A stretch of 42,481 nucleotides of DNA from the NCBI GenBank assembly GCA_024280495.1, contig JAJRPZ010000068.1:1-42481 (forward strand), in the 5' to 3' direction. The notes under the pieces were generated by a model. That model made no database searches. It saw only the letters and a program-made list of their open reading frames with translations, and had not been told where the DNA came from. The DNA comes from Alphaproteobacteria bacterium. GTDB taxonomy: Bacteria; Pseudomonadota; Alphaproteobacteria; Caedimonadales; UBA9215. Positions 2,991 through 22,935 of this stretch are shown piece by piece (the stretch's first letter is position 1; every line of letters begins with the position of its first letter). A program made the position numbers and the translations under genes.

Positions 2991-4682
2991 ATGATGCAAC
3001 AAAATATAAGTTGGTGTCAAAAAGTTCTTCTTGCTCATTGGCAGACCAAGGTAGCCCCCATAGTCATCATTATGATAATGCTTTCTCTATTTTCACAAAT
3101 ATCATTGGCTTCGGTGAAGCAAAATAACACGATTCAAGAAAAACAAATATCTTTAGATAAATATTTAAACACAACAAAATCTTTAAATTCTAAAAATGAA
3201 TTGTTGCGTAATGCTGCACGCTTTTATCAAGCTCGCCATTTTGAATCTTATTGGTATGATGGAAAAAAGCTGACTAGAAAAGCTCAAGAAGTTCTTAAAA
3301 CCCTGAACAATGCCCACCATGAAGGGTTGAATCCAAGAAATTATAGAGATGCGCTTGTGGCTGTTGATCAGGCTAATAGAGATCCTTCCAAAATAACGAA
3401 AGCTGAAATTGTATTAACATCCTATGCTCTTGAATATATTGATGATTTATTCGGGGAACGCCTTAATCCAAAACGCATAAAAAAAGAGTTATACATCAAA
3501 GCAAAAACCGTTGATGCAGTTTCCATTGCGCAAAATAAATCAAAAAAAGATCCTTCTTGGAAATGGTTTTCCTCCCTTACTCTAAAATACCCCGCTTACC
3601 AAATGTTAAAAAAAGAATTAAATGCCACTCGCGAACGATTAGTTAAAAGTCCTTATCCAGAGATATCCAATGGTGCTAAATTGGAAAAGGGTACAAAAGG
3701 TGGTCGTGTTGAAACGTTGCAATGGCAACTTTCAGCCCTTGGTTATTTGCGCCAAATTGTAACTCAAGGAGAGATCGATAAGGTAACGGACCAAGCCATT
3801 CGGGACTTTCAGAAAAGTAATAATCTTAAAATTGACGGTGTCGTTGGACCAATAACAATTGCTGCTTTAAATAGTTACAATCTTAAAAGGCGCATCCAAA
3901 AACTTATTGTCTCTATGGAACGATGGCGTTGGTTGCCTGAGGATTTGGGACAACGTTATGTTTTTGTAAATATTGCAGGATTTGATTTGAAGGCCGTTGA
4001 AAATGGTGAAACGCGTTTGCGTATGCCAGTTATTATTGGACGTAACTATCGAAAGACACCAGTTTTTTCTTCGGAAATCTATTCAATTCGTTTTAACCCA
4101 TCATGGCATGTGCCACGTAGCATTGCAGTAAAAGATAAGTTGCGTAAAATTAAAAAGGATCCAGGGTATTTAGATCGTGGGAATTTTGTTTTATATGATG
4201 CCTCAGGTTCTCAAATTAACCCCAACAGTGTTGATTGGTCTTTGGTTTCAGCGAAGAATTTCAATTATCGTTTGCGTCAAAAACCAGGGGCGCACAATGC
4301 CTTGGGGAAAATCCGTTTTTCCATCAAAACGACCTCTAATATTTATTTACATTCAACACCTAATAAGGCCCTATTTAATAAGGCCAAGCGCGCATTTAGT
4401 TCAGGATGTATTCGTGTTGGAAACCCTCAAGATCTGGCCGAATTTGTCTTTAAGGGAATGGATGATTGGACCTCCAAAAAAATTACTGCCAATATGGAAG
4501 GACTTCAAACGAAAAATGTATCTTTAAAAAATCCAGTGAAAGTTTATATAACTTACTTCACTATCTGGATGGGAGATGATAATAAACTGAAATATAGTCA
4601 AGATTTATATGGTCAAGATGCCGCCATTTGGAATGCGTTACAACAACGAACTGCGCCTAGGTTAAGATTGGCTCAATTTTGA
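2991..4682 (+). CDS. L,D-transpeptidase (YkuD catalytic domain) with a peptidoglycan-binding domain, YcbB/LdtD-like
   Basis: 563 aa. N-terminal hydrophobic anchor. PG_binding_1-like DGVVGPITIAALN. Catalytic motif IYLHSTPNKALFNKAKRAFSSGCIRV (His ... Ser-x-Gly-Cys-Ile-Arg). Confidence 0.85.
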   Translation: MMQQNISWCQKVLLAHWQTKVAPIVIIMIMLSLFSQISLASVKQNNTIQEKQISLDKYLNTTKSLNSKNELLRNAARFYQARHFESYWYDGKKLTRKAQEVLKTLNNAHHEGLNPRNYRDALVAVDQANRDPSKITKAEIVLTSYALEYIDDLFGERLNPKRIKKELYIKAKTVDAVSIAQNKSKKDPSWKWFSSLTLKYPAYQMLKKELNATRERLVKSPYPEISNGAKLEKGTKGGRVETLQWQLSALGYLRQIVTQGEIDKVTDQAIRDFQKSNNLKIDGVVGPITIAALNSYNLKRRIQKLIVSMERWRWLPEDLGQRYVFVNIAGFDLKAVENGETRLRMPVIIGRNYRKTPVFSSEIYSIRFNPSWHVPRSIAVKDKLRKIKKDPGYLDRGNFVLYDASGSQINPNSVDWSLVSAKNFNYRLRQKPGAHNALGKIRFSIKTTSNIYLHSTPNKALFNKAKRAFSSGCIRVGNPQDLAEFVFKGMDDWTSKKITANMEGLQTKNVSLKNPVKVYITYFTIWMGDDNKLKYSQDLYGQDAAIWNALQQRTAPRLRLAQF

Positions 4683-4704
4683 TAGGACTTCTGAACTAAT
4701 CAAC

Positions 4705-4760
4705 AATAAGTCATAAACCCTGCCCTCGCCCCTAGACTGGAACATGTTGGAACACTACAG
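4705..4760 (-). repeat. copy D (inverted orientation, roughly half length) of the dispersed palindromic element, filling the ldt/MFS convergent spacer
   Basis: The reverse complement reads CTGTAGTGTTCCAACATGTTCCAGTCTAGGGGCGAGGGCAGGGTTTATGACTTATT. Compare CTATAGTCATTCCCAAAACATTCCAGTCTAGGAGCGAGGGACCAACGCCTATAACTTATAGG at 8889-8950. Confidence 0.6.
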
Positions 4761-6083
4761 TTGCACTAATTGATCAGTTTTATTCTCTAATTTGCCCTTG
4801 AGGGGTTTCATGAAATAACAAGCCAGCAAAGCAATTAATAGAGAAAGTGTAACAACGGACAAGCCATAAATATAAGAATCAGCTGAGTAGACTACGCTTT
4901 CGTTCATTGTCGCACTAGCTCCTTTATCCATAAAATAACCAATAATCGGTTGCGATAGAACGCCACTAAACATACACATCATATTGTGCACACCAGAGGA
5001 CGTTGCCGTTCTCGAACGACAATTTAAGGCCGATATAGCTGAGAAGGAGAGAAATTGCCCCCCCAATCCAAGACCACAAATCAGAAGTAATACTCCAACG
5101 GTAAATAACGTTAATTCTGGTAAATAAAGCATTGCAGCAAAACTGAGAAAAGAAATTAAACCAGCAAAAAACAATGACTTACGATAACTTTCTAATTTTG
5201 CATGTACAAAGGACCATAGAGGGGCGCTTATACCAACGCCAAGATAAATCAACCATGACATATCCGTCGCAATGGCACGACTCACACTATAAGTATCTTC
5301 AATATAGGCTGCCCCCCAGAGATCGCAAAAACCACTTAATGGCATGTACATGGCAAGACCATAAATTCCTATAACCCAGGACATAGGCTCTGTGAAAATT
5401 GCTTTAAAAGATTGAGTTACATGAGTTACTTCTTGTTTCACAGACCGTATTTTTTTAGGTGAAACAATTTTCACATCTTTCACTATAAACCAAGACAGCA
5501 CGGCAAGAACACCACCACTTATGGCTAAAAGTTGCAGAGCAGACTGCCAACCTAATACATCTAATAAATAAACAAGAGGTGATCCTGCGACTTTGGCTCC
5601 TAGGGTTCCAGCAAGGAGGGTAAGCCCCACAAACAAGGGCATTTTTTTCGGATCAAACCAGAGGGAAGCTACTTTTACATTACTGAGAAACGCAAATGAA
5701 GAACCGATCCCCATCATTAATCGAGCAAGAGTTAGAATAATAGAACTTTCTGCAATGGCGAAAAGTAAAACACCAAGGGAACACATGATGATTGCAAATA
5801 CAACGGGCAATTTGACGCCGACACGATCCAAGATAATGCCTGCTGGAAGTTGCATCACAACATAGCCGATATAGTAAAATGACATAATGCTACCAAGGGT
5901 AACGGCATCAAAGCCATAAGCGACCATCAGGCTGTCGGTACAAGCATTGGGAGAAACACGTAAAATAAATTGAAAGAAGTAAAAGAGAGCGACACTTCCC
6001 CAAATAAGCAGGCCTTTTTTAAATTTTTCTTCTTTGGTTAAATTGTTATGTTGAGCACCTTTAGATGCTAAATGAGAAGTCAT
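4755..6083 (-). CDS. MFS transporter (substrate unknown)
   Basis: 442 aa with about 12 hydrophobic segments. MFS loop motif AGIILDRVG. Confidence 0.8.
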   Translation of the reverse strand: MTSHLASKGAQHNNLTKEEKFKKGLLIWGSVALFYFFQFILRVSPNACTDSLMVAYGFDAVTLGSIMSFYYIGYVVMQLPAGIILDRVGVKLPVVFAIIMCSLGVLLFAIAESSIILTLARLMMGIGSSFAFLSNVKVASLWFDPKKMPLFVGLTLLAGTLGAKVAGSPLVYLLDVLGWQSALQLLAISGGVLAVLSWFIVKDVKIVSPKKIRSVKQEVTHVTQSFKAIFTEPMSWVIGIYGLAMYMPLSGFCDLWGAAYIEDTYSVSRAIATDMSWLIYLGVGISAPLWSFVHAKLESYRKSLFFAGLISFLSFAAMLYLPELTLFTVGVLLLICGLGLGGQFLSFSAISALNCRSRTATSSGVHNMMCMFSGVLSQPIIGYFMDKGASATMNESVVYSADSYIYGLSVVTLSLLIALLACYFMKPLKGKLENKTDQLVQL

Positions 6084-6649: not shown

Positions 6650-6735
6650 AGGACCCATAAATTCGGCTGCAGTATTTTCATGATAAATCTGTTAGTCTAT
6701 CTTTGTACAAAAATAGCTCATTAGGTTTTAGAACT

Positions 6736-7515
6736 ATGTCAGAAAAACACATTTCCATTAATCATCATTTTGAAAAAAACCACGCTGATAAATTCCCTTT
6801 TAAACGTGTCTGTTTGAAACTTTCAGGGGAAGCTCTTATGGGGAGAGAGTCTTTTGGCTTAGACCCTGCCGTAGTTTCACGTGTCGCCAGTGAGATTAAA
6901 ACCGTTTATGAAAGCGGTATAGAGCTCTGCATCGTTATTGGTGGCGGTAATATTTTTCGTGGTATTAGTGGCGCTAGCCAAGGTATGGACCGCACCAGCT
7001 CTGATTACATGGGGATGATGGCAACGGTTATTAATGCCCTTGCCCTTCAAAATGCTCTAGAGCGCATTGATGTAAATGCCCGCGTTCAATCTGCCATTCC
7101 CATGGAAACCGTTTGCGAATCTTATATTCGCCGAAGAGCCGTGAATCACCTCAAGAAAAAACGGGTTATCATTTTTGCAGCAGGAACTGGAAACCCTTAC
7201 TTTACAACGGATACAACGGCCGTTTTGCGCGCATCAGAAATGAATTGCGACATTCTATTGAAAGGTACTAAAGTTGATGGTATTTACACAGCTGATCCGA
7301 CAACAAATCCAGATGCCACAAAATACAATCACCTTACTTATGAAACAGTTATTCGAGATAAGCTTAACGTTATGGATATGGCTGCCATTGCTCTTGCAAG
7401 GGATAATAAACTTCCTCTCATGGTTTTTTCCATCAATGAGCCTGGAACTTTTAAAAAGTGCCTTGAGGGATCGGGAAACTGTACAGTTGTCGATACTTGC
7501 GATCTTTTCACATAA
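6736..7515 (+). CDS. pyrH: UMP kinase
   Basis: KRVCLKLSGEALMG, IVIGGGNIFRG and GNPYFTTDTTAVLRA motifs. The ORF track starts at TTG 6703; ATG 6736 is the more likely start. Confidence 0.95.
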   Translation: MSEKHISINHHFEKNHADKFPFKRVCLKLSGEALMGRESFGLDPAVVSRVASEIKTVYESGIELCIVIGGGNIFRGISGASQGMDRTSSDYMGMMATVINALALQNALERIDVNARVQSAIPMETVCESYIRRRAVNHLKKKRVIIFAAGTGNPYFTTDTTAVLRASEMNCDILLKGTKVDGIYTADPTTNPDATKYNHLTYETVIRDKLNVMDMAAIALARDNKLPLMVFSINEPGTFKKCLEGSGNCTVVDTCDLFT

Positions 7516-7616
7516 TCAACCTCTCCCCAGTGGATTGACTATATTCCCTTGCGATTCTAAATTTCTCGGTATATCTTCTAATTAGAAAATAAAATTTTGA
7601 TATAAAAGACTTAACT

Positions 7617-8171
7617 ATGACTTTCTTACTCTCTGATTATAAAAAAAACATGCAAAGCTCCCTAGACGCCCTTCATAAAGAATTTGTGGGTCTCCGTACG
7701 GGACGAGCTTCAACAAATCTTTTGGAACCCGTTACCGTTGAGGCTTATGGCTCTCGCATGCCTATGACGCAAGTCGGCACCGTGAGCGCCCCCGATGCAC
7801 GGCTATTGACTGTTCAAGTTTGGGATAAAGATATGGTAAAGGCCGTTGAAAAATCTATCCGTGAGGCTGGACTTGGTCTTAATCCAACAACAGAAGGTCA
7901 AGTTATCCGCATTCCCATTCCTGATCTCACAGAAGATCGCCGTAAGGAATTAACAAAAATTGCTTCGAAATTCGCAGAGCAAACCAAAATTTCAGTCCGT
8001 AACGTACGTCGTGATGCTATGGATGAAATCAAAATGCTTGAGAAAGACGGAGATATATCCGAAGATGATTTGCATCGCCACAACAAAGAGGTACAAGATT
8101 TGACTGATTCTTTTATCAAAAAAGTTGATGACATGCTTTCAGCTAAAGAAAAAGATATCTTAACTGTTTGA
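7617..8171 (+). CDS. frr: ribosome recycling factor
   Basis: 184 aa. [31 protein letters not shown] and VRNVRRDA motifs. Canonical pyrH-frr adjacency. Confidence 0.97.
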
Positions 8172-8221
8172 TTAAATAACAAATAACAAATATCAATTAA
8201 CGTATTAAGGGTGCAAAAGTC

Positions 8222-8860
8222 ATGGGATCTAGAGTTTTAAAATTATTATTTATCACCTTGATTCTTTTGTGCCTTTTGAGTATCTTTCTTTATTTCAACC
8301 GTCCCCCCTCTTCTCTTGAGGGTACGTCAAGTAATTCTATTGCCTCTGTTAAAGTTGGAAAATCCTATGGTCAAGCCACTATTGGTGGTCCCTTTAAATT
8401 AATAGACCAAAATGGGAAAACGAGGACTCAAGCCGACTTTAAGGGTAAATTCATGATTGTGTATTTTGGCTATAGTTTTTGTCCAGATATATGTCCAGCG
8501 GCTCTTTATAATATGACTCAAGCCTTTGATGAACTTTCTTCAAAGGAACTTTCTCAATTCGCCCCCCTTTTTATTACCATTGATCCCGAACGAGATTCCG
8601 TTGAAAACCTCAAAACTTATATGCAAAATTTTCACCCTGCCATCATTGCACTCACGGGGAGTAATGAGAAACTAACTCCTGTCATCAAGGCTTATCGGGT
8701 TTATGCTAAGAAAGCAAAACCAGACGGAACCGCAACGGAGTATTTATTAGATCATTCTTCCATTGTTTACCTTATGGACCGTCAAGGACGCTTTATCACT
8801 TCCTTTAATCACCAAACAGATCCAGAAACAATAGTAAAAACATTACGAGCTGTTCTCTAG
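8222..8860 (+). CDS. SCO1/SenC family copper chaperone (thioredoxin fold)
   Basis: N-terminal TM anchor. FGYSFCPDICP (CxxxC) and the downstream His in LLDHSSIVYLMDRQG are typical of SCO proteins. Confidence 0.88.
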   Translation: MGSRVLKLLFITLILLCLLSIFLYFNRPPSSLEGTSSNSIASVKVGKSYGQATIGGPFKLIDQNGKTRTQADFKGKFMIVYFGYSFCPDICPAALYNMTQAFDELSSKELSQFAPLFITIDPERDSVENLKTYMQNFHPAIIALTGSNEKLTPVIKAYRVYAKKAKPDGTATEYLLDHSSIVYLMDRQGRFITSFNHQTDPETIVKTLRAVL

Positions 8861-8889
8861 TTCATTTCATAAAAAAGACAAATCCTTTC

Positions 8890-8996
8890 TATAGTCATTC
8901 CCAAAACATTCCAGTCTAGGAGCGAGGGACCAACGCCTATAACTTATAGGCGCGGGAGTGATTGACGACGTCTGGAATGTTTTGGGAATGACTATA
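8890..8996. repeat. reference copy B of the dispersed palindromic MITE/RPE-like element (107 bp)
   Basis: Perfect 25-bp terminal inverted repeats, TATAGTCATTCCCAAAACATTCCAG at 8890-8914 and CTGGAATGTTTTGGGAATGACTATA at 8972-8996. Central palindrome GCCTATAACTTATAGGC at 8935-8951. Related copies at 909, 4705, 22964 and 38855. Confidence 0.8.
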
Positions 8997-9201
8997 TTTA
9001 TGATGGTTCCTTTTTGGAATCTCTATAATCCCTACCATTTCCTCCCCCCTCCTTCTCTCTTATTATTCTGTGACTATTTCTTTTGTTTTTGACAATGAGT
9101 TTTATGCAATTCGACCCTTCGTTATTAAAACTTGTATAAATAATGCCTAGTAATTATATATGTAGTGTAAATACTTATTAAACAAAACAAGGGTCTATGA
9201 T

Positions 9202-9969
9202 ATGAAAAACCAAATTTCAAAAAAATCTATTTTTGCACTATTATCAACTGTTGCAGTTCTAGGAAGTGTAACAGTTCAAGCAACTAACTATGACTATGAT
9301 GACGATGATTTTTATTATCACAATATGGGCTTTGGTGGGGAATCTCAAGATATCTCCTTTATTCCTACTCCTAGTGAAACAAACGAGATTATTACTAATG
9401 CTCCAAAACAAATAGGAGACTCAGTGGTTTCTAAAATTGAAGAATATGTTCCTGGAGGATCTTACCTAACGGGTGCGACAAAGAAATTTTCAGGTTTTTT
9501 CGGTTACGGCTCTTTGACTGAAATGGTTGTAGATACGGCTAGCAAACCTTTTAAAATTAAAAAAGATGAGTGTCCTGATACTTATACAGGATATGTAAAA
9601 GAACTAGCAATTCAAAATGCAAATAGTTTTGTAGGATTTTTTCCAGGCATAACAAAGGATGACGCAAAGGTCGTTAAAAAAATATTTTCTATACTGAAAA
9701 AATATGATCATGAAAAAGATACCTTAGAAGATATTATAGAACGTGAACTTATTAATAAAATACCATCAGGTTCTAAGATTGGTGGTATGACAGCCAAGCA
9801 ACTCGTTGATCGTCTTGTTCCAGGTGGTGAATACATAACAACTGCCACTGGTTTTCTTGCTAAAAAAACAACGGGTAAAGATACGTTAACAGAAGCCGTA
9901 CTCGCAAACATGGGAGGGATTTTTGACTATGACTTCAAAGATTTCTTTTATGCACAATACGGTAATTAA
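9202..9969 (+). CDS. secreted hypothetical protein with an internal duplication (VPGG-x-Y-x-T-x-AT ... LTE module) and an aromatic/Gly C-terminal tail
   Basis: 255 aa. AAGGG RBS 8 nt upstream. Sec-type signal MKNQISKKSIFALLSTVAVLGSVTVQA/TN. No recognisable catalytic motif. Confidence 0.7.
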   Translation: MKNQISKKSIFALLSTVAVLGSVTVQATNYDYDDDDFYYHNMGFGGESQDISFIPTPSETNEIITNAPKQIGDSVVSKIEEYVPGGSYLTGATKKFSGFFGYGSLTEMVVDTASKPFKIKKDECPDTYTGYVKELAIQNANSFVGFFPGITKDDAKVVKKIFSILKKYDHEKDTLEDIIERELINKIPSGSKIGGMTAKQLVDRLVPGGEYITTATGFLAKKTTGKDTLTEAVLANMGGIFDYDFKDFFYAQYGN

Positions 9970-10100
9970 TAAGAATTTCCCCCTATGAGGAATCTTCATC
10001 GGGGGATTCATAAAAAAGAATTTGCATTATTGACAATATGTCATTATATATTATGCAGTGAATAATAAATATAACATTTAAATCATTAGGGGATTTAACT

Positions 10101-11303
10101 ATGATGAAAAAACAACTAACAGCCTTTATTTTTGGCTCAACCGCCTTGGTAACTTCTATGAGCTTTTTGCCATTAGCAGATGTTCATGCGGGTAATTTCA
10201 CAGACTCTTTAGACATGAACAACCTTTCAAGAAGTGTTTTTGCTAATCCTGGTCAGGCCCGTGGCCATTCGGAAAATTTGTTTAATTCCATGCGTCATGA
10301 TAATAAAGTAAATGCATCAGCTTATACAAACGTTTCCATGTCAAAAGAGGATAAAATCCTTTGGGCAGCAAAATCAGCGGCTGCTACATACCGTTATATG
10401 GGTAGTGACACTGATACTGATCAATTTAAGGCTAATGGCAAAGTTTCAATAGAAAAGCGTCTTGATCTTGGTGAGCAATATGTGTTCGGTGGAACAAATA
10501 TTGAAGGAGACGAGTTCTCTCAGGGTGGCCACATATTTTATAAGTGGAACAAGGAAACTGGACGTCACGAATTGAATGTTGCATTTCGTGGTACAGAAAC
10601 TGGTGCGGACTGGGGATATAACTTTGATGTGAAAAAAGCTAAAAATGTCTTTTTCGCAGGAAAAGAAATGTCTTTACATTCTGGATTTTACAACCGTTAC
10701 ATGGCCATGAGAGACTCTTTAACAAAAAATATTAGTAAAATATTGCTAGAAAAAAATATTACAGATTTTAGCAAACTTGATATTACTGTTACGGGGCATA
10801 GTCTTGGTGCTGGCCTTGCTGGTATTGGAGCCGTTGATTTAAAATATTATTTTAATCAAATTGCTCGTTTTCATAAGTCAGAACCAGTTACATCATTTGA
10901 TGTTATCACATTCGCACAACCAAGATTTGCAGGAGAAAGAACTGCAAAGTGGATTAGTAATTATTTAGGTAATGACCATATCACCAGAATTTGGGGGTCA
11001 TATGATCCAGTAGCTGCTGTTGGCCTTGGAAAAATGGGTTATAAACATGTTGGACGCAGCGGTGGATATATGCTGGATAACCTCAGTTGGGTTATATCTA
11101 AAGACTATAAAGCCCTTCACTCCATGGGTAATTACTTAGATGCAATCTTGAACAAACAAAAATTAATTCACTACAAGGGAAAAGTTCATGGTGTCGGGCG
11201 TCAAGCTACGAGAGCTGCTAATGCACTTAAAAGCCAAGCCACGAAAGCAACTAAAGGTGTTACAAATATCTTTAAAAATGCCTGGGGAAAAGTTTGGGGC
11301 TAA
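10101..11303 (+). CDS. secreted class-3 (fungal-type) lipase family protein
   Basis: 400 aa. AGGGGA RBS. Signal peptide ...SMSFLPLADVHA/GN. Nucleophile elbow ITVTGHSLGAGLAG preceded by AFRGTE, as in Lipase_3 proteins. Confidence 0.85.
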   Translation: MMKKQLTAFIFGSTALVTSMSFLPLADVHAGNFTDSLDMNNLSRSVFANPGQARGHSENLFNSMRHDNKVNASAYTNVSMSKEDKILWAAKSAAATYRYMGSDTDTDQFKANGKVSIEKRLDLGEQYVFGGTNIEGDEFSQGGHIFYKWNKETGRHELNVAFRGTETGADWGYNFDVKKAKNVFFAGKEMSLHSGFYNRYMAMRDSLTKNISKILLEKNITDFSKLDITVTGHSLGAGLAGIGAVDLKYYFNQIARFHKSEPVTSFDVITFAQPRFAGERTAKWISNYLGNDHITRIWGSYDPVAAVGLGKMGYKHVGRSGGYMLDNLSWVISKDYKALHSMGNYLDAILNKQKLIHYKGKVHGVGRQATRAANALKSQATKATKGVTNIFKNAWGKVWG

Positions 11304-11327
11304 CCTAAGAAGCTAAAACAAATAAAA

Positions 11328-11352
11328 GGCGGCAAAGGTCGTCTTTTTTTTT
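11328..11352 (+). terminator. rho-independent terminator after the lipase gene
   Basis: GGCGGC-AAAG-GTCGTC hairpin (two G-U pairs) followed by T9 at 11344-11352. Confidence 0.55.
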
Positions 11353-11502
11353 GCAAAAAAAACATTCTAACTGACAAGTAATTAAATAATTAATGTGTTT
11401 TTTATTATTTTGAACTTGAATATTAAAGTATTAATAACTATATATTTAATGGACTAGGTTTGACATAAGCAACAATTATTTTTTAATAAGGGGAATATGA
11501 AT

Positions 11503-13479
11503 ATGAAGAGACAAATTAGTGTAGGCGCGATCATTATTAGCATGGTTTTTTTTGCACCTAATGCATATGCAACGTCAATTTCTGTTGAGAATGAAGAAAG
11601 TTTTGTAACAAGTCGTGGCATAAATGTTTCAACATTACAAGATTGTCAATATGACTCAGCCTCTTTTAGAGTGAGAGCTGACAAATCTAATTTACCCCAT
11701 GAAAAACGTCGTATTCTTTCCTTAGATGGTGGCGGTATTCGCGGGCTTTATGAAATTGCTATGCTGGCCGTTTTAGAAGAAATTATTTTATCTAATAATG
11801 TCGGCAACCCAGACGCTCGCATTTCGGATTATTTTGACGTTGCTGGTGGCACATCGACAGGTTCCATTCTTGCAGCAGGTCTATTTTACGAAGGTAGTCA
11901 AGGCACAAAATATTCTGCCATTGACCTTTTGAAACTATATTCACGTTATGGTAGTGAGATTTTTGATGATCACAAAAAAACACTCGGTGGTGCATATGGT
12001 TCAAAATACACAGCAACTGGTCTAAATGATTTATTGGTCGCGCACTTTAATGATGATCACCTTAATAATACAGTTGTGGATAATTTTGGTGATCCAAAAC
12101 ATATTTATGTTATTGGATTCGATTGCAGTGAGCATAAACCTGCTGTTTTCTCCACGACTCCACTTGAAAATCCCCTTGAACGTCAATACAATTACCATAC
12201 TCGTGCATTAGTTGAAGCTATTGGCGTATCAACAGCAGCACCAGTTTTCTTTCCTGCATGTGATGTTATAAAAAACTATAAAACTGTTCAAATGAAAGAT
12301 GGTGGCTTGGTTGCCAACAATCCTTCCTACCTTGTGTATCAAGCAGAAAATTCAAGCTATGGTGGCATAACTGGTGCAAATTATGAAATTTACTCCTTCG
12401 GAACGGGTGTTACTCCTATTGAGATGGGCGAAAATAACATGGGAGTTACTGCTGTTAAGCCCCTAATAGAAGAAGTTTTTTCGGCACAGGTTAGTGCTAC
12501 AGTAAGAAGCTGTTACGATGAAGTCATCACACCCAATAGTAAGTTAACTTACTTTGTCCGATTTCAACCTCAACTTGAAAAGGGTATGGGGGAAATGGAT
12601 GATACCAGTGATTCTTATGTAAATTATGCAATAAACAAAGCATATGAAGTGGTGAAAGGAGAGGTGTTTGCAGATATGTTGATCCAGCTTGGTCTTGAGA
12701 CTCCAGAAAATTTCGACGAAATATTTAATGATATTGGATTTAAACTCCATTCTCTTTCGTCAAAAAAGTATGAAAACTTTAAATATTTTGAAAAAAAATG
12801 GCTCCTTCGAGAAATATCTAAACTTAACTTTGAGCTATTTGAAAATGTAAATGTCAACGGTGAAATTTTAACCGATGAGGAAACTGTTTCCATATTGTTT
12901 GCAGCTATGGGCACGGCTGAAAAAGAAAACGAGGCAATGTTTAATAAGATTTTATCTTTATTTAAGACCACAAAAAATGACTTTATCTCTCAAGTCATAC
13001 CAAGAGGTCTAGATTTTCACAATAAAGTAAAATCACGTGAGACATTGAATATCGACGAAGAGCCTTTAGCTGGCTTAGTTAAAGATATTTTTGCTGAATT
13101 TAGAGAGTTGTGTGATTCTAAATCAAATGAGAATGGTTACACCTATTATGAACATAAGAGTAAATATATAGATCTTGTTGCCGATATATATTGGAAAAAT
13201 AAATTAAAAAATATAAAAGGAGAGGATGCTTTTAATTATTTAAATGATTTATACCGATCACTCTTTAAAGAAGCCGTAAATACCAATATTGAAAAAGCAA
13301 AACTTAATAAATGGGTAGCTGAAGTCTTTTATGCGTCACGTGAATTTATTCTTAAGGATCAACTTGCCGCTTATATCAAAAAATATTTCCCTAATGAAGA
13401 CTTTACTGAATTGAGCTCAAAAGTTGGTGATAAAGTTGGAGAAATATTTGATTATTTCAAAGGTTGGTTCGGCTATTAA
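11503..13479 (+). CDS. secreted patatin-like phospholipase with a ~250-aa uncharacterised C-terminal extension
   Basis: Oxyanion motif LSLDGGGIRG, nucleophile GGTSTGS (G-x-S-x-G) and catalytic Asp in MKDGGLVANNP. Signal peptide ...FFAPNAYA/TS. The AAGGGG RBS spacing favours ATG 11503 over ATG 11497. Confidence 0.88.
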   Translation: MKRQISVGAIIISMVFFAPNAYATSISVENEESFVTSRGINVSTLQDCQYDSASFRVRADKSNLPHEKRRILSLDGGGIRGLYEIAMLAVLEEIILSNNVGNPDARISDYFDVAGGTSTGSILAAGLFYEGSQGTKYSAIDLLKLYSRYGSEIFDDHKKTLGGAYGSKYTATGLNDLLVAHFNDDHLNNTVVDNFGDPKHIYVIGFDCSEHKPAVFSTTPLENPLERQYNYHTRALVEAIGVSTAAPVFFPACDVIKNYKTVQMKDGGLVANNPSYLVYQAENSSYGGITGANYEIYSFGTGVTPIEMGENNMGVTAVKPLIEEVFSAQVSATVRSCYDEVITPNSKLTYFVRFQPQLEKGMGEMDDTSDSYVNYAINKAYEVVKGEVFADMLIQLGLETPENFDEIFNDIGFKLHSLSSKKYENFKYFEKKWLLREISKLNFELFENVNVNGEILTDEETVSILFAAMGTAEKENEAMFNKILSLFKTTKNDFISQVIPRGLDFHNKVKSRETLNIDEEPLAGLVKDIFAEFRELCDSKSNENGYTYYEHKSKYIDLVADIYWKNKLKNIKGEDAFNYLNDLYRSLFKEAVNTNIEKAKLNKWVAEVFYASREFILKDQLAAYIKKYFPNEDFTELSSKVGDKVGEIFDYFKGWFGY

Positions 13480-13518
13480 CAGTTGAAATCATAAATAAGA
13501 AAGATAACTAGCAAACAT

Positions 13519-13542
13519 CCGCGGGGCAAGCCCCGCGGTTTT
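13519..13542 (+). terminator. rho-independent terminator after the patatin gene
   Basis: Perfect 8-bp GC-rich stem CCGCGGGG/CCCCGCGG, loop CAAG, then TTTT. Confidence 0.75.
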
Positions 13543-13568
13543 ACATCAGCTTTATAAAGGACTATATT

Positions 13569-14654
13569 ATGGAATTAAGTAAGAAATTATTTGTCGCAGT
13601 TTTATCATTTTGGTCTATTGCTGGCAATGCCACGTCTATAGATACTGATAATTCAGAATTAATAACACAAAAAAGTTATAGCGAAATCTTACCTCTTGAG
13701 AAACAGCAATACCTTACTGATCTCGGTTACCACGTTCTAGGACGTTTGACCCATGGTGAGGAAATTGATTTTCAAAATGAAACTTTTTTTGACGGTTTAA
13801 ACTTAAATGAATTTAAAGCTGACGTGGAATATTCGAAATTGGCTAAATTTGCCATTTTTTCAAATAATACTCGTTGGTTACTCTCAAGTTCCGATGATTC
13901 CTATAATCAAGAACGCAAAAATCGATTGACGGCAATTGCTGCCATCATGTGGGCTTTCACTGATCTTTCTCATAAGAAAAATAGTGTTTTTTCAAGGGGG
14001 GCTTATACAATAATGGACCCTAACCATAATGTTGCTAATTTTTTTATGGATTACGTAAAGCTTGTAACGGGGTCAGATAATCCAACTGAAACACACTGTG
14101 CCCTAACAAAAAGCAATTTTGCCTATCGCAGACTTCCAGAAAAAGGCGGATCAAGTCATCACAAAGGACGCACACCCTTGGGGCAATTTGGAATTGATCT
14201 ACGTTTTGAATCTTGGGAAACTTTGATGAGTATATTGCCTTTTTCCATGGCACATATTTTATTTGGCCAATTAGATATAGAAGAAGACCAACACCTTTTA
14301 TTTGTAAAACCAGAACCCGTTGGCCTCGGAAGTAAAGGTGAGTTTATGGATCACAGCTGTCATTTTTTAAACAGTGGTCATGTTGAAAATGATACACGTC
14401 GTGAAAAAGATATTAATCCAAAAATAATAACAGCATTTCAAAATATTATAGAAACATCCGATTTGGAAAATTCAGCCACTACTGTAAGAGATATGATATT
14501 AACCGCAAAAGAAATTGAAAATAAAAATTTTATTTCAGAAACAACAAGAGGTGCAATAAATGATTTCAATGATGTTATTGAAAGCTTATATTCAGAAGAT
14601 AACAATGAAATTCGCATTGGTAACGAAGTTATCCTAGACTTAAGTCAACTTTAA
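13569..14654 (+). CDS. secreted hypothetical protein (no recognisable domain)
   Basis: 361 aa. AAAGGA RBS 8 nt upstream. Signal peptide MELSKKLFVAVLSFWSIAGNA/TS. It has its own terminator-bounded upstream region. Confidence 0.7.
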   Translation: MELSKKLFVAVLSFWSIAGNATSIDTDNSELITQKSYSEILPLEKQQYLTDLGYHVLGRLTHGEEIDFQNETFFDGLNLNEFKADVEYSKLAKFAIFSNNTRWLLSSSDDSYNQERKNRLTAIAAIMWAFTDLSHKKNSVFSRGAYTIMDPNHNVANFFMDYVKLVTGSDNPTETHCALTKSNFAYRRLPEKGGSSHHKGRTPLGQFGIDLRFESWETLMSILPFSMAHILFGQLDIEEDQHLLFVKPEPVGLGSKGEFMDHSCHFLNSGHVENDTRREKDINPKIITAFQNIIETSDLENSATTVRDMILTAKEIENKNFISETTRGAINDFNDVIESLYSEDNNEIRIGNEVILDLSQL

Positions 14655-14732
14655 ATATTTTATGAGGGGGTCTTGCATTCAAAGCGAGATCTGTTCTATA
14701 AATAAAGAGATCTGTATTTAAGAGGATTTCAC

Positions 14733-15248
14733 ATGTCACCACTTCCTTATTATGAAAAAGCCTGTAATGAAAATCAACCAGGCTCTATTTTCGCCCATTG
14801 GAACTGGTCTGCTTTTCTTTTTGGTCCCCTTTGGTTTGCCTATCGCAAAAGTTATTTCTACGCCTTCCTATTTCTATATGTAGAGATTCTTTATGGTGCT
14901 TTCCTTGTGGAATTAGGGTCTGGATTTTTTCAATATAAACTCACGGCCCTCCTCCCCCTTCGTATTCTCATTGGTTTTGTTGGAACCTCTTTATACCTTA
15001 GAAAATGGATAAATGGACGCCGATCCCATGCTAAACACACGTCTATTATAGCCTTAATTTTATTTAGTATCTTTAATGCAATGTTTTCCAATGCCCTTCT
15101 TGAAAAGCCCGTCTTTCCTGATGTGACCTGGCCTTTAAAACGTGAATTTTACTACTACTATTATGATGACCGTACCAATGGTACTATCTCTATAGAGTCA
15201 GAAAAAACCATGAAAAAAGTGAAAGAATCTCCTTATTTTGAGGTATAA
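14733..15248 (+). CDS. DUF2628 domain-containing membrane protein
   Basis: HWNWSAFLFGPLWFAYRKSYFY is the DUF2628 signature, with further TM segments. Unusual Tyr/Asp run EFYYYYYDD near the C-terminus. Confidence 0.7.
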   Translation: MSPLPYYEKACNENQPGSIFAHWNWSAFLFGPLWFAYRKSYFYAFLFLYVEILYGAFLVELGSGFFQYKLTALLPLRILIGFVGTSLYLRKWINGRRSHAKHTSIIALILFSIFNAMFSNALLEKPVFPDVTWPLKREFYYYYYDDRTNGTISIESEKTMKKVKESPYFEV

Positions 15249-15314
15249 CCCTCGTTAAAAACTTGCATCGATACCATAAAAACGATACAAAATAGTATTC
15301 ATATTTTTAATTCA

Positions 15315-16148
15315 ATGGAATTTATTGACATGCCTGTAGATGCAAACGGATTAATGACTGGTAAACGTGGAATTATTTTGGGCGTTGCCAATAAAAACTC
15401 CCTTGCGTGGGGGATCGCACAACAGCTTCATGATCAAGGTGCAGAAATTGCTTTTACCTATGCTGGTGACGCCCTTAAAAAACGTGTTGAGCCCCTGGCG
15501 GAAAGCATAAATTCTAATCTTGTTTTACCTTGCGATGTCACTAAGGAAGAAGATATCAAATCCGTTTTTCAAACATTAAAGGAGAAATGGGGCACCATTG
15601 ATTTTATTCTCCATGCCATTGGATTTTCAGACAAAAATCAGCTCTCTGGCTATTATTACGAAACAACCCGTGATAATTTTCTGATGACCATGGATATTTC
15701 TTGTTTTTCCCTCACGGCAATTGCACGAGAAGCAGCCCCCCTTATGAATGAAGGCGGTAGTATTTTAACATTAACTTATTATGGGTCGGAAAAAGTTATG
15801 CCCCATTATAATGTCATGGGTGTTGCCAAAGCTGCCCTTGAGGCAAGTGTTAGGTATCTTGCAGCGGACCTAGGTCCCAAACAAATTCGTGTCAACGCCC
15901 TTTCTGCAGGTCCCGTTAAAACATTAGCTGCCGCTGGCATTAGTGATTTCCGCCAAATACTTCAGTGGAACGAACAAAATTCTCCCTTGCGCCGTAATAT
16001 TGGCCTGGATGAAGTTGGTAAATCGGGTCTGTATCTTTTGAGTGACTTATCCAGTGGCGTAACTGGTGAAAACCATCATGTGGATTGTGGGTATCACACA
16101 GTTGGCATGAAGGCTATTAATCCATCCCATGATACAAAAGTTGATTAA
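15315..16148 (+). CDS. fabI: enoyl-[acyl-carrier-protein] reductase (NADH) FabI
   Basis: GKRGIILGVANKNSLAWGIA glycine-rich N-terminus, YNVMGVAKAALE (Tyr-x6-Lys), SAGPVKTLAA. The start could be ATG 15330. Confidence 0.92.
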   Translation: MEFIDMPVDANGLMTGKRGIILGVANKNSLAWGIAQQLHDQGAEIAFTYAGDALKKRVEPLAESINSNLVLPCDVTKEEDIKSVFQTLKEKWGTIDFILHAIGFSDKNQLSGYYYETTRDNFLMTMDISCFSLTAIAREAAPLMNEGGSILTLTYYGSEKVMPHYNVMGVAKAALEASVRYLAADLGPKQIRVNALSAGPVKTLAAAGISDFRQILQWNEQNSPLRRNIGLDEVGKSGLYLLSDLSSGVTGENHHVDCGYHTVGMKAINPSHDTKVD

Positions 16149-16153
16149 TATAA

Positions 16154-16906
16154 ATGCCTAAAGCCCTTCCTTCCCCTCAGATGTTATCAGAGCTTAACCC
16201 TGACGCCATACCACGTCACGTAGCTTTGATTATGGATGGGAACGGGCGCTGGGCAAGTGAACGCCATCAGCCTCGACTTTTTGGACATAAAAAAGGCGTG
16301 GAGGCCCTTAAAAAAGCTATAAATTATGCACTTAAGGCTAACATTCCTTTTTTAAGTGCTTGGGCTTTTTCTACGGCAAATTGGAAGCGTCCCAAATCCG
16401 AAGTTTCGGGTCTCATGACTATTTTACGTCATACTCTTGAAAAAGATATCGATGAATTTCATGAGAAAGGTATTTGCCTTCGCGTTATCGGTTTTTTGAA
16501 TGACCTGGATAAAAACTTACAAAAAATCATCCAGAACGCACAAGAACGCACTAAAAATAATTCCGCACTCACCCTTATTATTCATTTTAACTATGATGGC
16601 CGAAAAGACATGGTTCAAGCCGTTCAAAAGCTCAGTGAAAAGGTAAAATCAGGGGAAATATTATCAGAGAGTATCACCGAAGATATGATCAGCCAAAACA
16701 CACTCATGGCAGAATTTACTGACCCTGAACTTCTCATTAGAACTTCTGGAGTTGTTCGCCTGAGTAATTACATGATGTGGCAATGTGCCTTTACAGAGCT
16801 TGTTTTTATTGAAAAGAACTGGCCTGATTTCACAGAAGAGGATTTTCATGGCGCGCTGCTCAAATTTCAAAAAACAGCTCGTAATTTTGGGCAAGTTTCC
16901 ACATAG
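16154..16906 (+). CDS. uppS: isoprenyl transferase / undecaprenyl-diphosphate synthase
   Basis: IPRHVALIMDGNGRWA, FSTANWKRP and LLIRTSG..RLSN motifs. Confidence 0.95.
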   Translation: MPKALPSPQMLSELNPDAIPRHVALIMDGNGRWASERHQPRLFGHKKGVEALKKAINYALKANIPFLSAWAFSTANWKRPKSEVSGLMTILRHTLEKDIDEFHEKGICLRVIGFLNDLDKNLQKIIQNAQERTKNNSALTLIIHFNYDGRKDMVQAVQKLSEKVKSGEILSESITEDMISQNTLMAEFTDPELLIRTSGVVRLSNYMMWQCAFTELVFIEKNWPDFTEEDFHGALLKFQKTARNFGQVST

Positions 16907-16994
16907 AGTCATTTCAAAAAGGTTCCATATTGCATCTGCCTCCCTATTCTGATGTAGCTACCCTAAGTTATGACTCATAAATTAGGAGCATCCA

Positions 16995-17290
16995 ATGACA
17001 AAAAGACAAATAACCCATTATCCCAATGAATTCAAAAAATCCCCAGCTAAGTTGGCAGTTGAATCCAAGGAATCAGTTGCCCAGATAGCTAAAAACCTTG
17101 GCGTTCACGTTGCAACCCTCCATGGCTGGGTCAAAAAATATAATCCCAAGACCACACCATCTGTAAAAAAATTTCACAGAACTGCCCCTTAGAAGAGCTG
17201 AAGCAACTTAGAAAAGAAAACGCACGCTTATGTGAGAAACGGGATATCTTTAAAAAAAGCAGCGTCAAATGTGTCCGTAAAAAGGTTGAC
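16995..17290 (+). mobile_element. degraded IS3-family transposase OrfA remnant (HTH plus leucine-zipper part only, frameshifted, no OrfB)
   Basis: MTKRQITHYPNEFKKSPAKLAVESKESVAQIAKNLGVHVATLHGWVKKY matches the Transposase_8 HTH pattern. It continues in another frame as EELKQLRKENARLCEKRDIFKK, and LKKAAS is in a third frame around an A7 run. No DDE integrase follows. Confidence 0.7.
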
Positions 17291-17384
17291 ACATCAATCA
17301 CTCGTGGTTTTAATCCTCCTTATATCTGTTATAGTGACAATATTACTATTGCTAAAAACACCCAACCAGATGGACCTAAATATA

Positions 17385-18230
17385 ATGCCTTCTAAAAACC
17401 CATCACTTAAGACCAAAATCGGTATTGTTGCTGGTAATGGTGATTTAGTGCGGGATGTTATTCAATGTTGTCTTTCTCAAAAAATCCCTTTTCATGTATT
17501 GGCTTATGAAGGACAAACTGACACCAAGCTTATCCAAAACACCCCACATACTTGGCTGAAATTAGGACAAGCTGGAAAAGCTCTCAAAACATTCAAGGAA
17601 AATAATGTAACAACTGTCGTCATGGCTGGTTACTTTAATCGTCCAAGTTGGAGTGATATCAAACCAGATATCAAAGGTGTCAAACTTTTATCAAAGCTTG
17701 TGGGAAAACCCATGGGGGATGATGGTCTTTTTCGAGTTATTATTGATTTTTTTGAGCAGGAAGGATTTGACGTCATAAGCCCCGAAGATATTATAGGGGG
17801 TGACACTCTTATTGCCGAAGGTATCCTAACTCAAAAAAAACCTTCGGAACAAGATTACATCGATATTCAAAGGGGCTTTAAAGTTGCAAAAGGCATTGGC
17901 CGCCTAGATATAGGACAAAGTGTTGTTATGCAAAATGGCCTTGTGCTTGGAGTCGAAGCCCTTGAAGGGTCCGATAACCTTATCAAACGTACTGCTGATC
18001 TAAAAGCAGATAAACAAGGTGGCGTTTTTGTAAAAGTCATAAAACCAGGTCAAGATACCAGAGTTGATCGGTCTGTCATTGGTCCTGAAACCGTTTTAAA
18101 TGCAGCTAATGCTGGCCTTTCAGGCATTGCAGCCGAAACTAAAAGCATCATAATTATCAACAAAGATCAAACCATTGCCCTTGCCAATGAAAAAGGGCTC
18201 TTTATTATTGGGATTTCCTATGACCTCTAA
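17385..18230 (+). CDS. lpxI: UDP-2,3-diacylglucosamine pyrophosphatase LpxI (DUF1009)
   Basis: KIGIVAGNGDLVRDV N-terminus, DIGQSVVMQNGLVLGVEALEGSDNLIKR, DRSVIGPETV. The ORF is open from GTG 17232, but that part overlaps the IS remnant. ATG 17385 gives the typical length of about 281 aa. Confidence 0.82.
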   Translation: MPSKNPSLKTKIGIVAGNGDLVRDVIQCCLSQKIPFHVLAYEGQTDTKLIQNTPHTWLKLGQAGKALKTFKENNVTTVVMAGYFNRPSWSDIKPDIKGVKLLSKLVGKPMGDDGLFRVIIDFFEQEGFDVISPEDIIGGDTLIAEGILTQKKPSEQDYIDIQRGFKVAKGIGRLDIGQSVVMQNGLVLGVEALEGSDNLIKRTADLKADKQGGVFVKVIKPGQDTRVDRSVIGPETVLNAANAGLSGIAAETKSIIIINKDQTIALANEKGLFIIGISYDL

Positions 18231-19425
18231 ATCAATATCCTCAACTGACTCTCAATGCAATTCAACCATTTACGTCATTGCAGGCGAAGAAAGCGGCGAT
18301 CAAATTGGGGGGGGCCTCCTTCGCGCTCTCAAAAAGAAAGCTCCTAAAGACACTTTGAAATTCGAGGGCGTCGGTGGTGACACTATGAAAGCAGAGGGGC
18401 TGCTAAGTCTTTTCCCCATGAAAGAGCTTTCCATTATGGGGCTCTTTGAAATTATTCCCCATGCCTTGAATATTTTTGCGCGCCTTAACCAAACCGTTGA
18501 AGATATCAAACGATTACGCCCATCCGTAGTTGTAACAATTGATGCTCCAGGTTTTAATTTTCGTTTGGCAAAACGCATTAAGGCCCTAAACATTCCAGTC
18601 ATTCATATCAGCGCACCCACGGTTTGGGCTTGGAAACCAAGGCGTGCCGAAAAAGTTGCGGGATATTTAACTCATCTTTTGACCCTTTTTCATTTTGAAC
18701 CACCTTATTTCACAAAGCATGGCCTAAAAACGACTTTCATGGGTCATCCACTTGTTGAAAAAAAACTAGAAGAATTATCAAAGACAACGTATCGCAAGAA
18801 CCATAAAATAAAAAATAAACAGCCCCTCCTCTGTCTTTTGCCAGGGAGCCGCCCCTCGGAAATTAAAACCCATTTACCTATTTTTTTGGACACTGTTGAG
18901 ATATTAAAACTGCAATTCCCAGATCTTGAAGTTGTTATTCCAACTCTAGAATCCTTTAAAAATCAAATTACATACGACCTAAAACAACGTGGTATTTCAG
19001 GATATGTAACCTCCGATGAAAATGAGAAATACCTTTCTATGGGTGCGGCAACTGTGGCTATTGCAACAAGTGGGACCGTTACTCTCGAACTTGGTCTGTG
19101 TGATACCCCTATGATTGTAGCCTATAAAACAAATAAATTGACGGCTATTATTGTTAAAAAAATGCTTATGACAAAGCACGTTTCTTTGGTCAATATTTTA
19201 CTAGAAAAAGAGGTGGTTCCAGAATTTTTACAAGAAGAATGCACCCCTGAAATTCTTTCTTTACGCCTCCATAAACTCCTAACTAAAAACTCAGAATGCC
19301 ATGAAATTCAAGAAAAAGAACTTTTAAAACTCTCTTCCCTCATAAAATCAGATGATAAAAAAATGCCAAGCGACATTGCAGCAGACATTATATTGGAACA
19401 TGTATCCAAAGACATTGCTCATTAA
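18220..19425 (+). CDS. lpxB: lipid-A-disaccharide synthase
   Basis: IYVIAGEESGDQIGGGLLRAL N-terminus and LLPGSRPSEI motif. ATG 18220 overlaps the lpxI stop by 11 nt. Confidence 0.92.
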   Translation: MTSKSISSTDSQCNSTIYVIAGEESGDQIGGGLLRALKKKAPKDTLKFEGVGGDTMKAEGLLSLFPMKELSIMGLFEIIPHALNIFARLNQTVEDIKRLRPSVVVTIDAPGFNFRLAKRIKALNIPVIHISAPTVWAWKPRRAEKVAGYLTHLLTLFHFEPPYFTKHGLKTTFMGHPLVEKKLEELSKTTYRKNHKIKNKQPLLCLLPGSRPSEIKTHLPIFLDTVEILKLQFPDLEVVIPTLESFKNQITYDLKQRGISGYVTSDENEKYLSMGAATVAIATSGTVTLELGLCDTPMIVAYKTNKLTAIIVKKMLMTKHVSLVNILLEKEVVPEFLQEECTPEILSLRLHKLLTKNSECHEIQEKELLKLSSLIKSDDKKMPSDIAADIILEHVSKDIAH

Positions 19426-21318: not shown

Positions 21319-21426
21319 ACCTTATCTTTTTCAACACCTTCCAAAAAAGCAAGTAATATATTCCTTTAGTTCTCCTGTGGTTATGGTTAAATGGAAAGAA
21401 TCATAATAATAAAAGCAGGATACTCC

Positions 21427-22287: not shown

Positions 22288-22299
22288 AAAGAAATAACG

Positions 22300-22935
22300 A
22301 TGTCCTTTTTAGTAAAGTCATTTTTTTTGAAATTTTATTTTGTTGCTATAGCCCTTTTTTCGACATCGATTTTGGCAGCAACTCAAGAGAGCTCCAATGC
22401 TTTTGTTAATGAATTAGGAAACGACGTTATTTCTATTTTAAGAAATAAACATCAAAGCATGGCCGTACGGAAAAGTAACTTTCGCAAGGAAATTCGCGAA
22501 CATTTCGATCTTCCCTCCATTGGAAAGTTTATTATTGCTCGTTATTGGCGCCGCATGAATGATGCACAACATAAAAAATATATTAGCCTTTTTGAAGATG
22601 CAGTCATTGAAAACTACGCCTCACAATTTGATAATTACAAACAACAATCACTTGTCATTACTGGATCTCAAAAAACAAAGGATGGTGGCACGGTGATTAG
22701 CTCTGAAATTAGAACTCCTGGAAAAGGGACACCGTTGCACATTAAATGGAAGGTCTTTAAAACATCCAGAGGTCTCAAAGTACTTGATGTTATCGTGGAA
22801 AATGTAAGTATGAGCCTTACTTTGCGCAATGAATATTCTAGTGTTATTTCTTCCAGAGGAGGCAAAGTGGATAGTCTTTTCGTCTACCTTAAGGATAAAA
22901 TAAACGAAGATCGTGAAGAAAATAGAAAAAAATAA
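22300..22935 (+). CDS. mlaC: MlaC/Ttg2D family phospholipid-binding periplasmic protein
   Basis: Signal peptide. FDLPSIGKFIIARYWRRMNDAQHKKYISLFEDAVIENYASQF matches the Tol_Tol_Ttg2 pattern. Adjacent to mlaA. Confidence 0.8.
   Translation: MSFLVKSFFLKFYFVAIALFSTSILAATQESSNAFVNELGNDVISILRNKHQSMAVRKSNFRKEIREHFDLPSIGKFIIARYWRRMNDAQHKKYISLFEDAVIENYASQFDNYKQQSLVITGSQKTKDGGTVISSEIRTPGKGTPLHIKWKVFKTSRGLKVLDVIVENVSMSLTLRNEYSSVISSRGGKVDSLFVYLKDKINEDREENRKK

Follow-up and report, generated by a model that had tools for sequence, protein, structure and literature searches.

In this work we analysed a 42,481-nt stretch of an alphaproteobacterial contig (JAJRPZ010000068.1), hereafter the window, and focused on a short aromatic tail shared by the C-termini of three adjacent putative exported proteins. 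These are an orphan protein of 255 amino acids (aa) (protein 1, 9202-9969, defined as an open reading frame (ORF)), a class-3 lipase/phospholipase A1-like enzyme of 400 aa (10101-11303) and a patatin-like phospholipase of 660 aa (11497-13479). Coordinates are positions in the window, and these three genes, the fourth gene that follows them and all features of this block given below lie on the + strand. We consider it fairly probable that the tails are short C-terminal amphipathic aromatic helices through which a Holosporales-like endosymbiont anchors its Sec-exported lipolytic enzymes at a membrane or lipid interface. By analogy, their function would be of a known kind, that of the anchors of penicillin-binding proteins (PBP) 5 and 6, now carried by new enzyme families.

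The ORF translations place the tails at 9913-9966 in protein 1 (GGIFDYDFKDFFYAQYGN), at 11256-11300 in the lipase (GVTNIFKNAWGKVWG) and at 13432-13476 in the patatin (KVGEIFDYFKGWFGY), as described in an earlier reading of the DNA made from the sequence only (the sequence-only reading). Its coordinates for the lipase tail were right, and the 16-mer quoted with them begins one codon earlier, at 11253. The aromatic patch FSGFFGYG inside protein 1 was recovered at 9487-9510, and the fourth gene (13569-14654), which ends ..EVILDLSQL, carries no tail, both in agreement with that reading. The three proteins are otherwise unrelated, as it had also proposed: Pfam assigns no family to protein 1, Lipase_3 to the second and Patatin to the third, and pairwise BLASTP comparisons matched only the tails of protein 1 and the patatin. 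Endings with a terminal G, GY or GN and at least three F/W/Y among the final 12 positions were found in 3 of the 38 non-nested ORFs of the window, all three adjacent, and about nine other exported or membrane-anchored proteins of the window have no such tail. Among 656 unique ORFs of unrelated loci eight ended in this way, four of them being lipases or DacA that had been fetched deliberately, so that the background frequency is ~0.6% (~1.2% with the deliberately fetched proteins counted).

The DNA of the lipase tail gave local alignment scores of 6 and 8 with the other two 3' ends, ordinary values for the 703 pairs of 3' ends compared (mean 7.2). The pair formed by protein 1 and the patatin scored 13, the highest of all pairs. 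This match is confined to the shared residues G.IFDY.FK, where the synonymous third positions are the same in 4 of 6 codons, roughly the expectation under AT-biased codon use. Nucleotide identity of the 3' ends, which would have pointed to copy and paste, was thus not found: the DNA of the lipase tail shows no relationship to that of the other tails, and protein 1 and the patatin differ at 2 of 6 synonymous sites. On the basis of position, frequency and DNA comparison, the shared tail is real and is due neither to chance nor to a recent copy of one 3' end. The exact expression IF[DK][YN] of the sequence-only reading proved over-fitted, its core not being conserved in the lipase homologues. What is conserved across these homologues is a periodic aromatic/hydrophobic pattern, and the extreme C-terminal residues vary across tails (G, GY, GN, WN, WS, FSK, WGKK). 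An open-access literature search found no aromatic C-terminal tail described on bacterial class-3 lipases, on patatins or in Holosporales, which is weak evidence, and a search of 5.8 billion proteins with a 65-aa concatenation of the three tails, an uninformative query, yielded no candidate with three shared 5-residue words.

The lipase provides the longest history of the tail. It starts with a signal peptide-like segment (~residues 1-30, VHA|GN, 10101-10190) and belongs to Lipase_3 (PF01764; E = 1.1e-22, 80.8 bits for a cut-off of 22), with the GxSxG nucleophile elbow present as GHSLG (residues 232-236, 10794-10808), invariant in the alignment. Its fold is that of an alpha/beta hydrolase, with a core predicted by AlphaFold2 (AF2) at a predicted local distance difference test (pLDDT) score >90 and Foldseek matches to fungal lipases and plant phospholipase A1 (E ~1e-11). 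The model ends in a helix-break-helix arrangement (11196-11300, pLDDT ~50-60), in which a break separates a helix of small, polar and K-rich residues (365-380) from a low-confidence tail helix (387-399). This cationic, amphipathic tail helix, VTNIFKNAWGKVW(G), covers residues 387-400 (11259-11300). An exhaustive HMMER search showed that the tail is kept in dozens of homologues of 20-65% identity, including P0070, P0199 and the lipases of contigs L002, L137 and L138. P0070, 65% identical to the window lipase, ends ..DLFSSSWKKIWG, and P0199 ends ..GWGKVKGWFGY, the KGWFGY of which is identical to that of the window patatin. Among more distant relatives we found ..WGYFGY (P0077 and P0095), ..KSYWGGLFG (P0072), ..GQFFWGN (P0129) and ..VWNGFKSLWS (P0128), and further relatives end ..SSWKKIWG or ..TFWGYFGY. 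In the 150 best representatives of the lipase relatives the aromatic tail was present in 31 of 75 proteins with a signal peptide versus 7 of 75 without one (Fisher p = 9.4e-6), and Trp is enriched 5-fold in the last 10 residues of the relatives (0.051 vs 0.011). From this conservation among homologues, the tail is under selection and goes back to the ancestor of a large clade of class-3 lipases with signal peptides.

The patatin-like enzyme also starts with a signal peptide-like segment (~residues 1-25, AYA|TS, 11497-11571). It is a member of the Patatin family (PF01734; E = 2.6e-17, 64.1 bits for a cut-off of 27.7), with the GGGxRG oxyanion motif (GGGIRG, 11728-11745), the GxSxG serine (GTSTG with the nucleophile Ser, 11848-11862) and the DGG aspartate; G78-G83, S120 and D268-G270 are invariant in the patatin alignment (A7). 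The AF2 model (mean pLDDT 79) has an alpha-helical C-terminal domain of ~300 aa after the catalytic part, and Foldseek matched patatin, CapV and CapE (E ~1e-13). In A7 the window patatin runs ~22-25 residues past the ends of its homologues, and this extension (13402-13476) begins with the flexible linker FTELSSKV, to which the tail helix GDKVGEIFDYFKGW(FGY) is joined (residues 644-660, 13426-13476). In the model the fold ends at residue 630 and is followed by a 13-residue coil (631-643) and a helix (644-657) at pLDDT ~43. Judged from the models, the tails of the lipase and the patatin look like tethered helices and not like parts of the core. The tail is modular, that of the window patatin lying beyond the homologue ends, and the substrates of the tail-bearing enzymes are membrane lipids. 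Only one patatin homologue, P0002, has an aromatic add-on (LIINLWGEKYFTTNQ), independent of the window tail, and the longer extension of another, P0009, is non-aromatic. Exact-sequence look-ups of the window patatin and of the window Frr gave no match on record.

Three Finniella-like contigs also have a Lipase_3-patatin cassette, with or without a putative exported fourth protein of ~360 aa, and a TetR gene often comes after it (window 10101-14654; L002 279-5202; L137 8293-13191; L138 3299-6914). The cassette lipases of these three contigs always end ..A[IV]KS[AV]WNYFW[NGS] (the individual endings being ..AIKSAWNYFWN, ..AVKSVWNYFWG and ..AIKSVWNYFWS), and the adjacent exported patatin is tail-less in all three. 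The closest cassette-bearing contig comes from a 'Candidatus Finniella' metagenome-assembled genome (MAG). Together with the LpxI of the window, it points to a Holosporales/Paracaedibacteraceae-like alphaproteobacterium as the source, an assignment that stops short of the exact organism because the homologues are only 30-65% identical. The orphan gene upstream of the lipase is present only in the window cassette.

This orphan, protein 1, begins with a putative signal peptide (~residues 1-27, VQA|TN, 9202-9282) and contains VPGG.Y.T.AT...LTE.V twice as an internal repeat, at residues 83-113 and 206-236 (9448-9540 and 9817-9909; BLASTP E = 3e-4). The patch FSGFFGYG lies within the first repeat, and the tail forms a second aromatic patch after the second repeat. 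No match to protein 1 was found in Pfam, NCBIfam or the PDB sequences, and the set of 5.8 billion proteins contained one homologue, P0069, which keeps the internal patch as AGWFGYG but ends ..NMTSYFQKREEQS at the position of the tail. From these comparisons the tails of the patatin and of the orphan appear to be later, lineage-specific gains. We also observed an acidic/aromatic stretch, NYDYDDDDFYYHN, after the signal peptide of protein 1.

The physical character of the tails was evaluated by their hydrophobic moments (muH). At 100 degrees muH was 0.48-0.56 for the lipase (3-4% of shuffles) and 0.58-0.63 for the patatin (0.4-0.5% of shuffles), compared to 0.54-0.58 for Escherichia coli DacA (PBP5), and the beta-strand moments at 170 degrees were only 0.13-0.19. 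Averaged over 38 tail-bearing lipases, the moment is highest at 100 degrees (z = 5.5-8.0 versus shuffles) and falls below the shuffles at 160-170 degrees (z = -3.3 to -4.0). The analysis of helical periodicity and of AlphaFold models suggested in the sequence-only reading thus yielded helical, amphipathic tails for the lipase and the patatin, and not, at 100 degrees, for protein 1. The tail of the latter is acidic (4 D, 1 K) and rich in aromatic residues, with a muH of 0.16-0.22 at 100 degrees and a peak of 0.45-0.47 at 80-90 degrees. None of the three proteins contains a transmembrane (TM)-like stretch in its last 40 residues, the maximum Kyte-Doolittle value over 15 residues being 0.79, -0.07 and -0.13, respectively.

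The closest precedent is found in PBP5 and PBP6, the last ~18 residues of which form an amphipathic helix that keeps these Sec-exported enzymes at the outer face of the inner membrane (PMC2909392). PBP5 lacking its last 18 residues is released and loses membrane binding and function (PMC2909392). The window proteins share with them a presumably cleavable Sec signal peptide, the soluble domain and the lack of a membrane-spanning segment, and the lipase and patatin also share the amphipathic C-terminal helix. The style of the sequences is similar as well: E. coli DacC (PBP6) ends ..GGFFGRVWDFVMMKFHQWFGSWFS, and its GRVWDFVMMKFHQWFGSWFS resembles GEIFDYFKGWFGY of the window patatin and NIFKNAWGKVWG of the window lipase. 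Hydrophobic moments are equal (0.52-0.63), and the substrate is membrane-bound in both cases. The catalytic families differ, DD-carboxypeptidase on one side and Lipase_3 or patatin on the other, and the likeness is therefore one of analogy, not of homology; the window tails are also shorter and less hydrophobic than that of DacA. The sequence-only reading had proposed an undescribed sorting or anchoring signal. A selected tail is borne out for the lipase family, whereas an undescribed sorting signal is not, given the resemblance to the PBP5/PBP6 anchors and the variable termini. The evidence favours another of the options listed there, namely an amphipathic tail that inserts into membranes or a tethering tag.

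If the tails are interfacial anchors, each protein would be exported by the Sec pathway via its N-terminal signal peptide, a step suggested by a sequence feature only, and its catalytic domain would fold as a soluble enzyme. The last 14-18 residues, carried on a flexible linker or after a helix break, would form a helix upon contact with a bilayer or lipid, with the W/F/Y/I face buried in the interface and the K/G/D face in water. The lipase and the patatin would thereby be tethered to the surface that carries their substrate. The membrane concerned could be bacterial, either the envelope itself or vesicles, or, once the proteins are released, could belong to the protist host, where a lipid droplet would be a further candidate. 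Of the three tails, those of the patatin and the orphan would be the later gains of this lineage, presumably because all three proteins work on one surface. Holosporales/Paracaedibacteraceae-like alphaproteobacteria are cytoplasmic symbionts of protists (PMC11909080).

Several points weigh against such an anchor. The C-terminal 14-18-mers of tail-less lipase relatives are also helically periodic (z ~5), and amphipathicity alone is therefore not specific. Summed over the final 14 residues, Wimley-White interfacial values give -1.9 and -3.1 kcal/mol for the window tails versus -4.2 kcal/mol for DacA. Low pLDDT is usual for any poorly covered terminus, and the patatin tail has no alignment coverage. 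The tail of protein 1 does not have the feature of an amphipathic helix at 100 degrees and fits only as an aromatic interfacial patch. Anchoring of active phospholipases on the bacterium's own membranes would require control, and none was seen here. Finally, the localisation of the tailed proteins is a prediction from sequence.

Three other explanations were weighed. The resemblance might have no functional meaning and result from compositional chance or from local duplication of one 3' gene end, as the shortness of the tails (15-18 residues), an expression fitted to three sequences and the top-ranking DNA score of protein 1 and the patatin could suggest. However, a background of ~0.6-1.2% contrasts with three out of three adjacent genes, the lipase tail has been kept over homologues of 20-65% identity and its DNA is unrelated to the other two, while the match between protein 1 and the patatin is restricted to identical residues and broken at 2 of 6 synonymous sites. 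Chance or copy-paste is thus largely excluded, and we regard it as very improbable. The tail could instead be a regulatory peptide acting within the protein or on a partner, such as an autoinhibitory plug or lid, an element for oligomerisation or one for docking to the fourth protein. Mobile amphipathic lids are known to regulate class-3 lipases, as illustrated by the lid-opening structures among the Foldseek matches, the tails are flexible appendages, and in four independent contigs, counting the window, the lipase lies next to the fourth protein. This explanation is nevertheless unlikely, since the fourth-gene family also occurs alone, in three alphaproteobacterial MAG loci (L006-L008) whose surroundings hold neither a lipase nor a tail, and the tailed lipase of L138 is not accompanied by the fourth gene. 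Moreover, tails of the same style occur on PBPs, where there is neither a cleft nor a partner of this kind, and AF2 docks neither tail onto its core with confidence.

A dedicated sorting or secretion signal, recognised by a specific envelope machine for second-step crossing, surface display or vesicle loading, would account for a tail common to the very C-termini of three unrelated neighbouring exported proteins, for its association with signal peptides in the lipase relatives and for patatin and orphan tails that look later-added, as recruitment of a tag would predict. We nevertheless hold it to be improbable. There is no conserved terminal motif, the tailed lipase of the three cassette contigs stands next to an exported patatin without a tail, and other exported proteins of the window have none. 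No candidate sorting gene is linked to the tail in the window or in L002, L009, L131-L133, L137 and L138, features of sortase, exosortase, rhombosortase, type IX (T9SS) or type I (T1SS) secretion systems are absent here, and the PBP5/6 tail of the same kind works without a sorting machine (PMC2909392). There is a similarly small chance that the W/F-rich helix is a selected targeting module of lipolytic effectors, common to Holosporales-like endosymbionts and the wider clade of secreted class-3 lipases and read by a dedicated factor instead of just lipid. In that case its destination could be the inner leaflet of the outer membrane, vesicles or host lipid droplets and membranes, and the recent gain of tails by the patatin and the orphan would be recruitment into a pathway. 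Unless this targeting module exists, the tails open no new secretion or sorting pathway.

As an interfacial anchor, the tail would provide a large, mostly metagenomic clade of signal-peptide class-3 lipases with a built-in tether. It would help to predict the site of action of candidate host-interaction enzymes in protist endosymbionts. The PBP5/6-type anchor, usually regarded as a peculiarity of PBPs, would be extended to lipolytic enzymes.

The tails were also compared with other C-terminal signals. They are not of the GlyGly-CTERM, PEP-CTERM or LPXTG type, the last 40 residues having no TM-like stretch and lacking the order of signature motif, TM helix and basic cluster, and not of the RTX/T1SS type, as signal peptide-like N-termini are present and neither GGxGxD nonapeptide repeats nor a corresponding Pfam match was found; for GlyGly-CTERM, PEP-CTERM and RTX/T1SS this agrees with the sequence-only reading. 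The C-terminal domain of T9SS substrates was rejected, since a helical tail of 15-25 residues differs from a beta-sandwich of ~70-100 aa and no family of such domains was found in the Pfam scan. Like the beta-signal of outer membrane proteins, the tails enrich aromatic residues at the very end of an exported protein. The beta-signal requires an alternating hydrophobic beta-strand that closes a beta-barrel and ends in a residue such as F, Y or W, with H, I, L and M also accepted (PMC3582582). It was rejected on the grounds that the periodicity is helical (moment at 170 degrees 0.13-0.29), the terminal residue is G in the lipase and N in protein 1, and no barrel is present, the enzymes being alpha/beta hydrolases.

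With the patatin toxins ExoU and VipD the window patatin shares the order of a patatin domain and a helical C-terminal region. In these toxins the C-terminal four-helix bundle of ExoU and the corresponding region of VipD direct the protein to membranes. They differ in being substrates of type III or type IV secretion systems without signal peptides and in having a folded domain as membrane element, and the Foldseek match to ExoU-SpcU is too weak for relatedness (probability 0.93, TM-score 0.16-0.19). The nearest named relatives of the patatin domain are phospholipases of cyclic oligonucleotide-based anti-phage signalling systems (CBASS) and other anti-phage phospholipases. A role as CBASS effector was rejected: the NCBIfam CBASS_lipase score of 117 bits does not reach the cut-off of 200, and the protein carries the signal peptide and the 300-aa helical C-domain. 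Patatin homologues have an internal aromatic patch in this domain (SLASYFGYQT, VAGFFGYQT, LAGWFGVDT or SKLWSTIST, A7 columns ~717-730), where the window patatin has ILSLFKTTK (residues ~485-500, ~12950-12995). From its similarity to the C-terminal tails, this patch may be a second membrane-contact element.

A metagenome scan for KGWFGY followed by a stop codon gave at least 120 matches. Among the 120 matches listed, 29 had TGG in place of the stop, as random DNA gives, and 21 ended ORFs of at least 90 aa, mostly those of one PBP. This is a class A PBP (Transgly and Transpeptidase domains) of 755 aa with an N-terminal TM segment (L015, 2882-5146, - strand), which ends ..GKAKNAWDTFKGWFGY and was found with this end, among the matches listed, at no fewer than 12 metagenome loci (L015 and 11 others). 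Its extracytoplasmic tail, ..NAWDTFKGWFGY, borne by an enzyme active at the membrane surface, combines the FKGWFGY heptapeptide of the window patatin with the KNAW of the window lipase. It differs from the window proteins in being already anchored by its N-terminal TM helix, and it was found by a pattern scan, among the matches listed. We know of no study of the role of this tail. The matches in Laminin_G_3, DUF3846 and DUF554 proteins are probably due to chance. An uncharacterised 303-aa protein (L038) ends ..RYWNQIKGWFGY.

The N-termini of all four genes of the block, called by a crude rule, are signal peptide-like when read from the sequence and have cleavage sites of the AXA type, in gene order VQA|T, VHA|G, AYA|T and GNA|T. 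The block lies between pyrH/frr/SCO1 (6703-8860) and DUF2628/fabI/uppS/lpxI/lpxB (14733-19425). Its G+C content is 0.33-0.36, compared to ~0.38-0.42 in most of the flanking sequence (region 9000-15000 versus flanks). Both this composition and the interruption of the usual pyrH-frr ... uppS gene order would fit an inserted island. Terminator-like hairpins were recognised by consensus match only, one with a T-run 3' of the lipase gene (11324-11347) and a GC-rich one, CCGCGGGGCAAGCCCCGCGG, 3' of the patatin gene (13519-13538). The latter is a perfect GC-rich palindrome within an AT-rich region. These hairpins suggest that the island genes are separate transcription units.

The fourth gene (13569-14654) is an ORF for a putative exported protein of 361 aa without a known family, with a signal peptide-like segment at ~residues 1-21 (13569-13631). 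Nothing meaningful was found for it in Pfam, NCBIfam or the PDB sequences. Its own family is defined by the invariant motifs GSSHHxGRxPxxQFGIDxRFE and REKDI, the GSSHHxGR part lying at 14148-14171, and the window protein is 41% identical to the Finniella MAG copy. A profile scan of genome contigs with the alignment of this family gave four loci, one of them the Finniella MAG contig. In a TARA contig (L009, 2012-4269) a fourth-type protein adjoins a lipase in the absence of a patatin.

Lipase genes of this type were also seen in pairs. Contig L131 has two close lipase paralogues (4003-5334 and 9549-11438) with basic aromatic tails, ..GWGKVKGWFGY and ..LKGAFRGFKRKLFGL. L133 has tandem lipases (8845-11020), one tailed (..KSYWGGLFG) and the other tail-less (..TSRMTRLF), and this pair of tail-type lipases lies within ~5 kb of cdsA-uppS. 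Elsewhere in the window we found an LpxI of the alphaproteobacterial type (17232-18230), a UhpC/GlpT-like sugar-phosphate transporter (19966-21318), MlaA- and MlaC-like phospholipid-trafficking proteins (21391-22935) and a 678-aa protein (25902-27938) with a weak FliD-like similarity (E = 1e-6), far under the cut-off.

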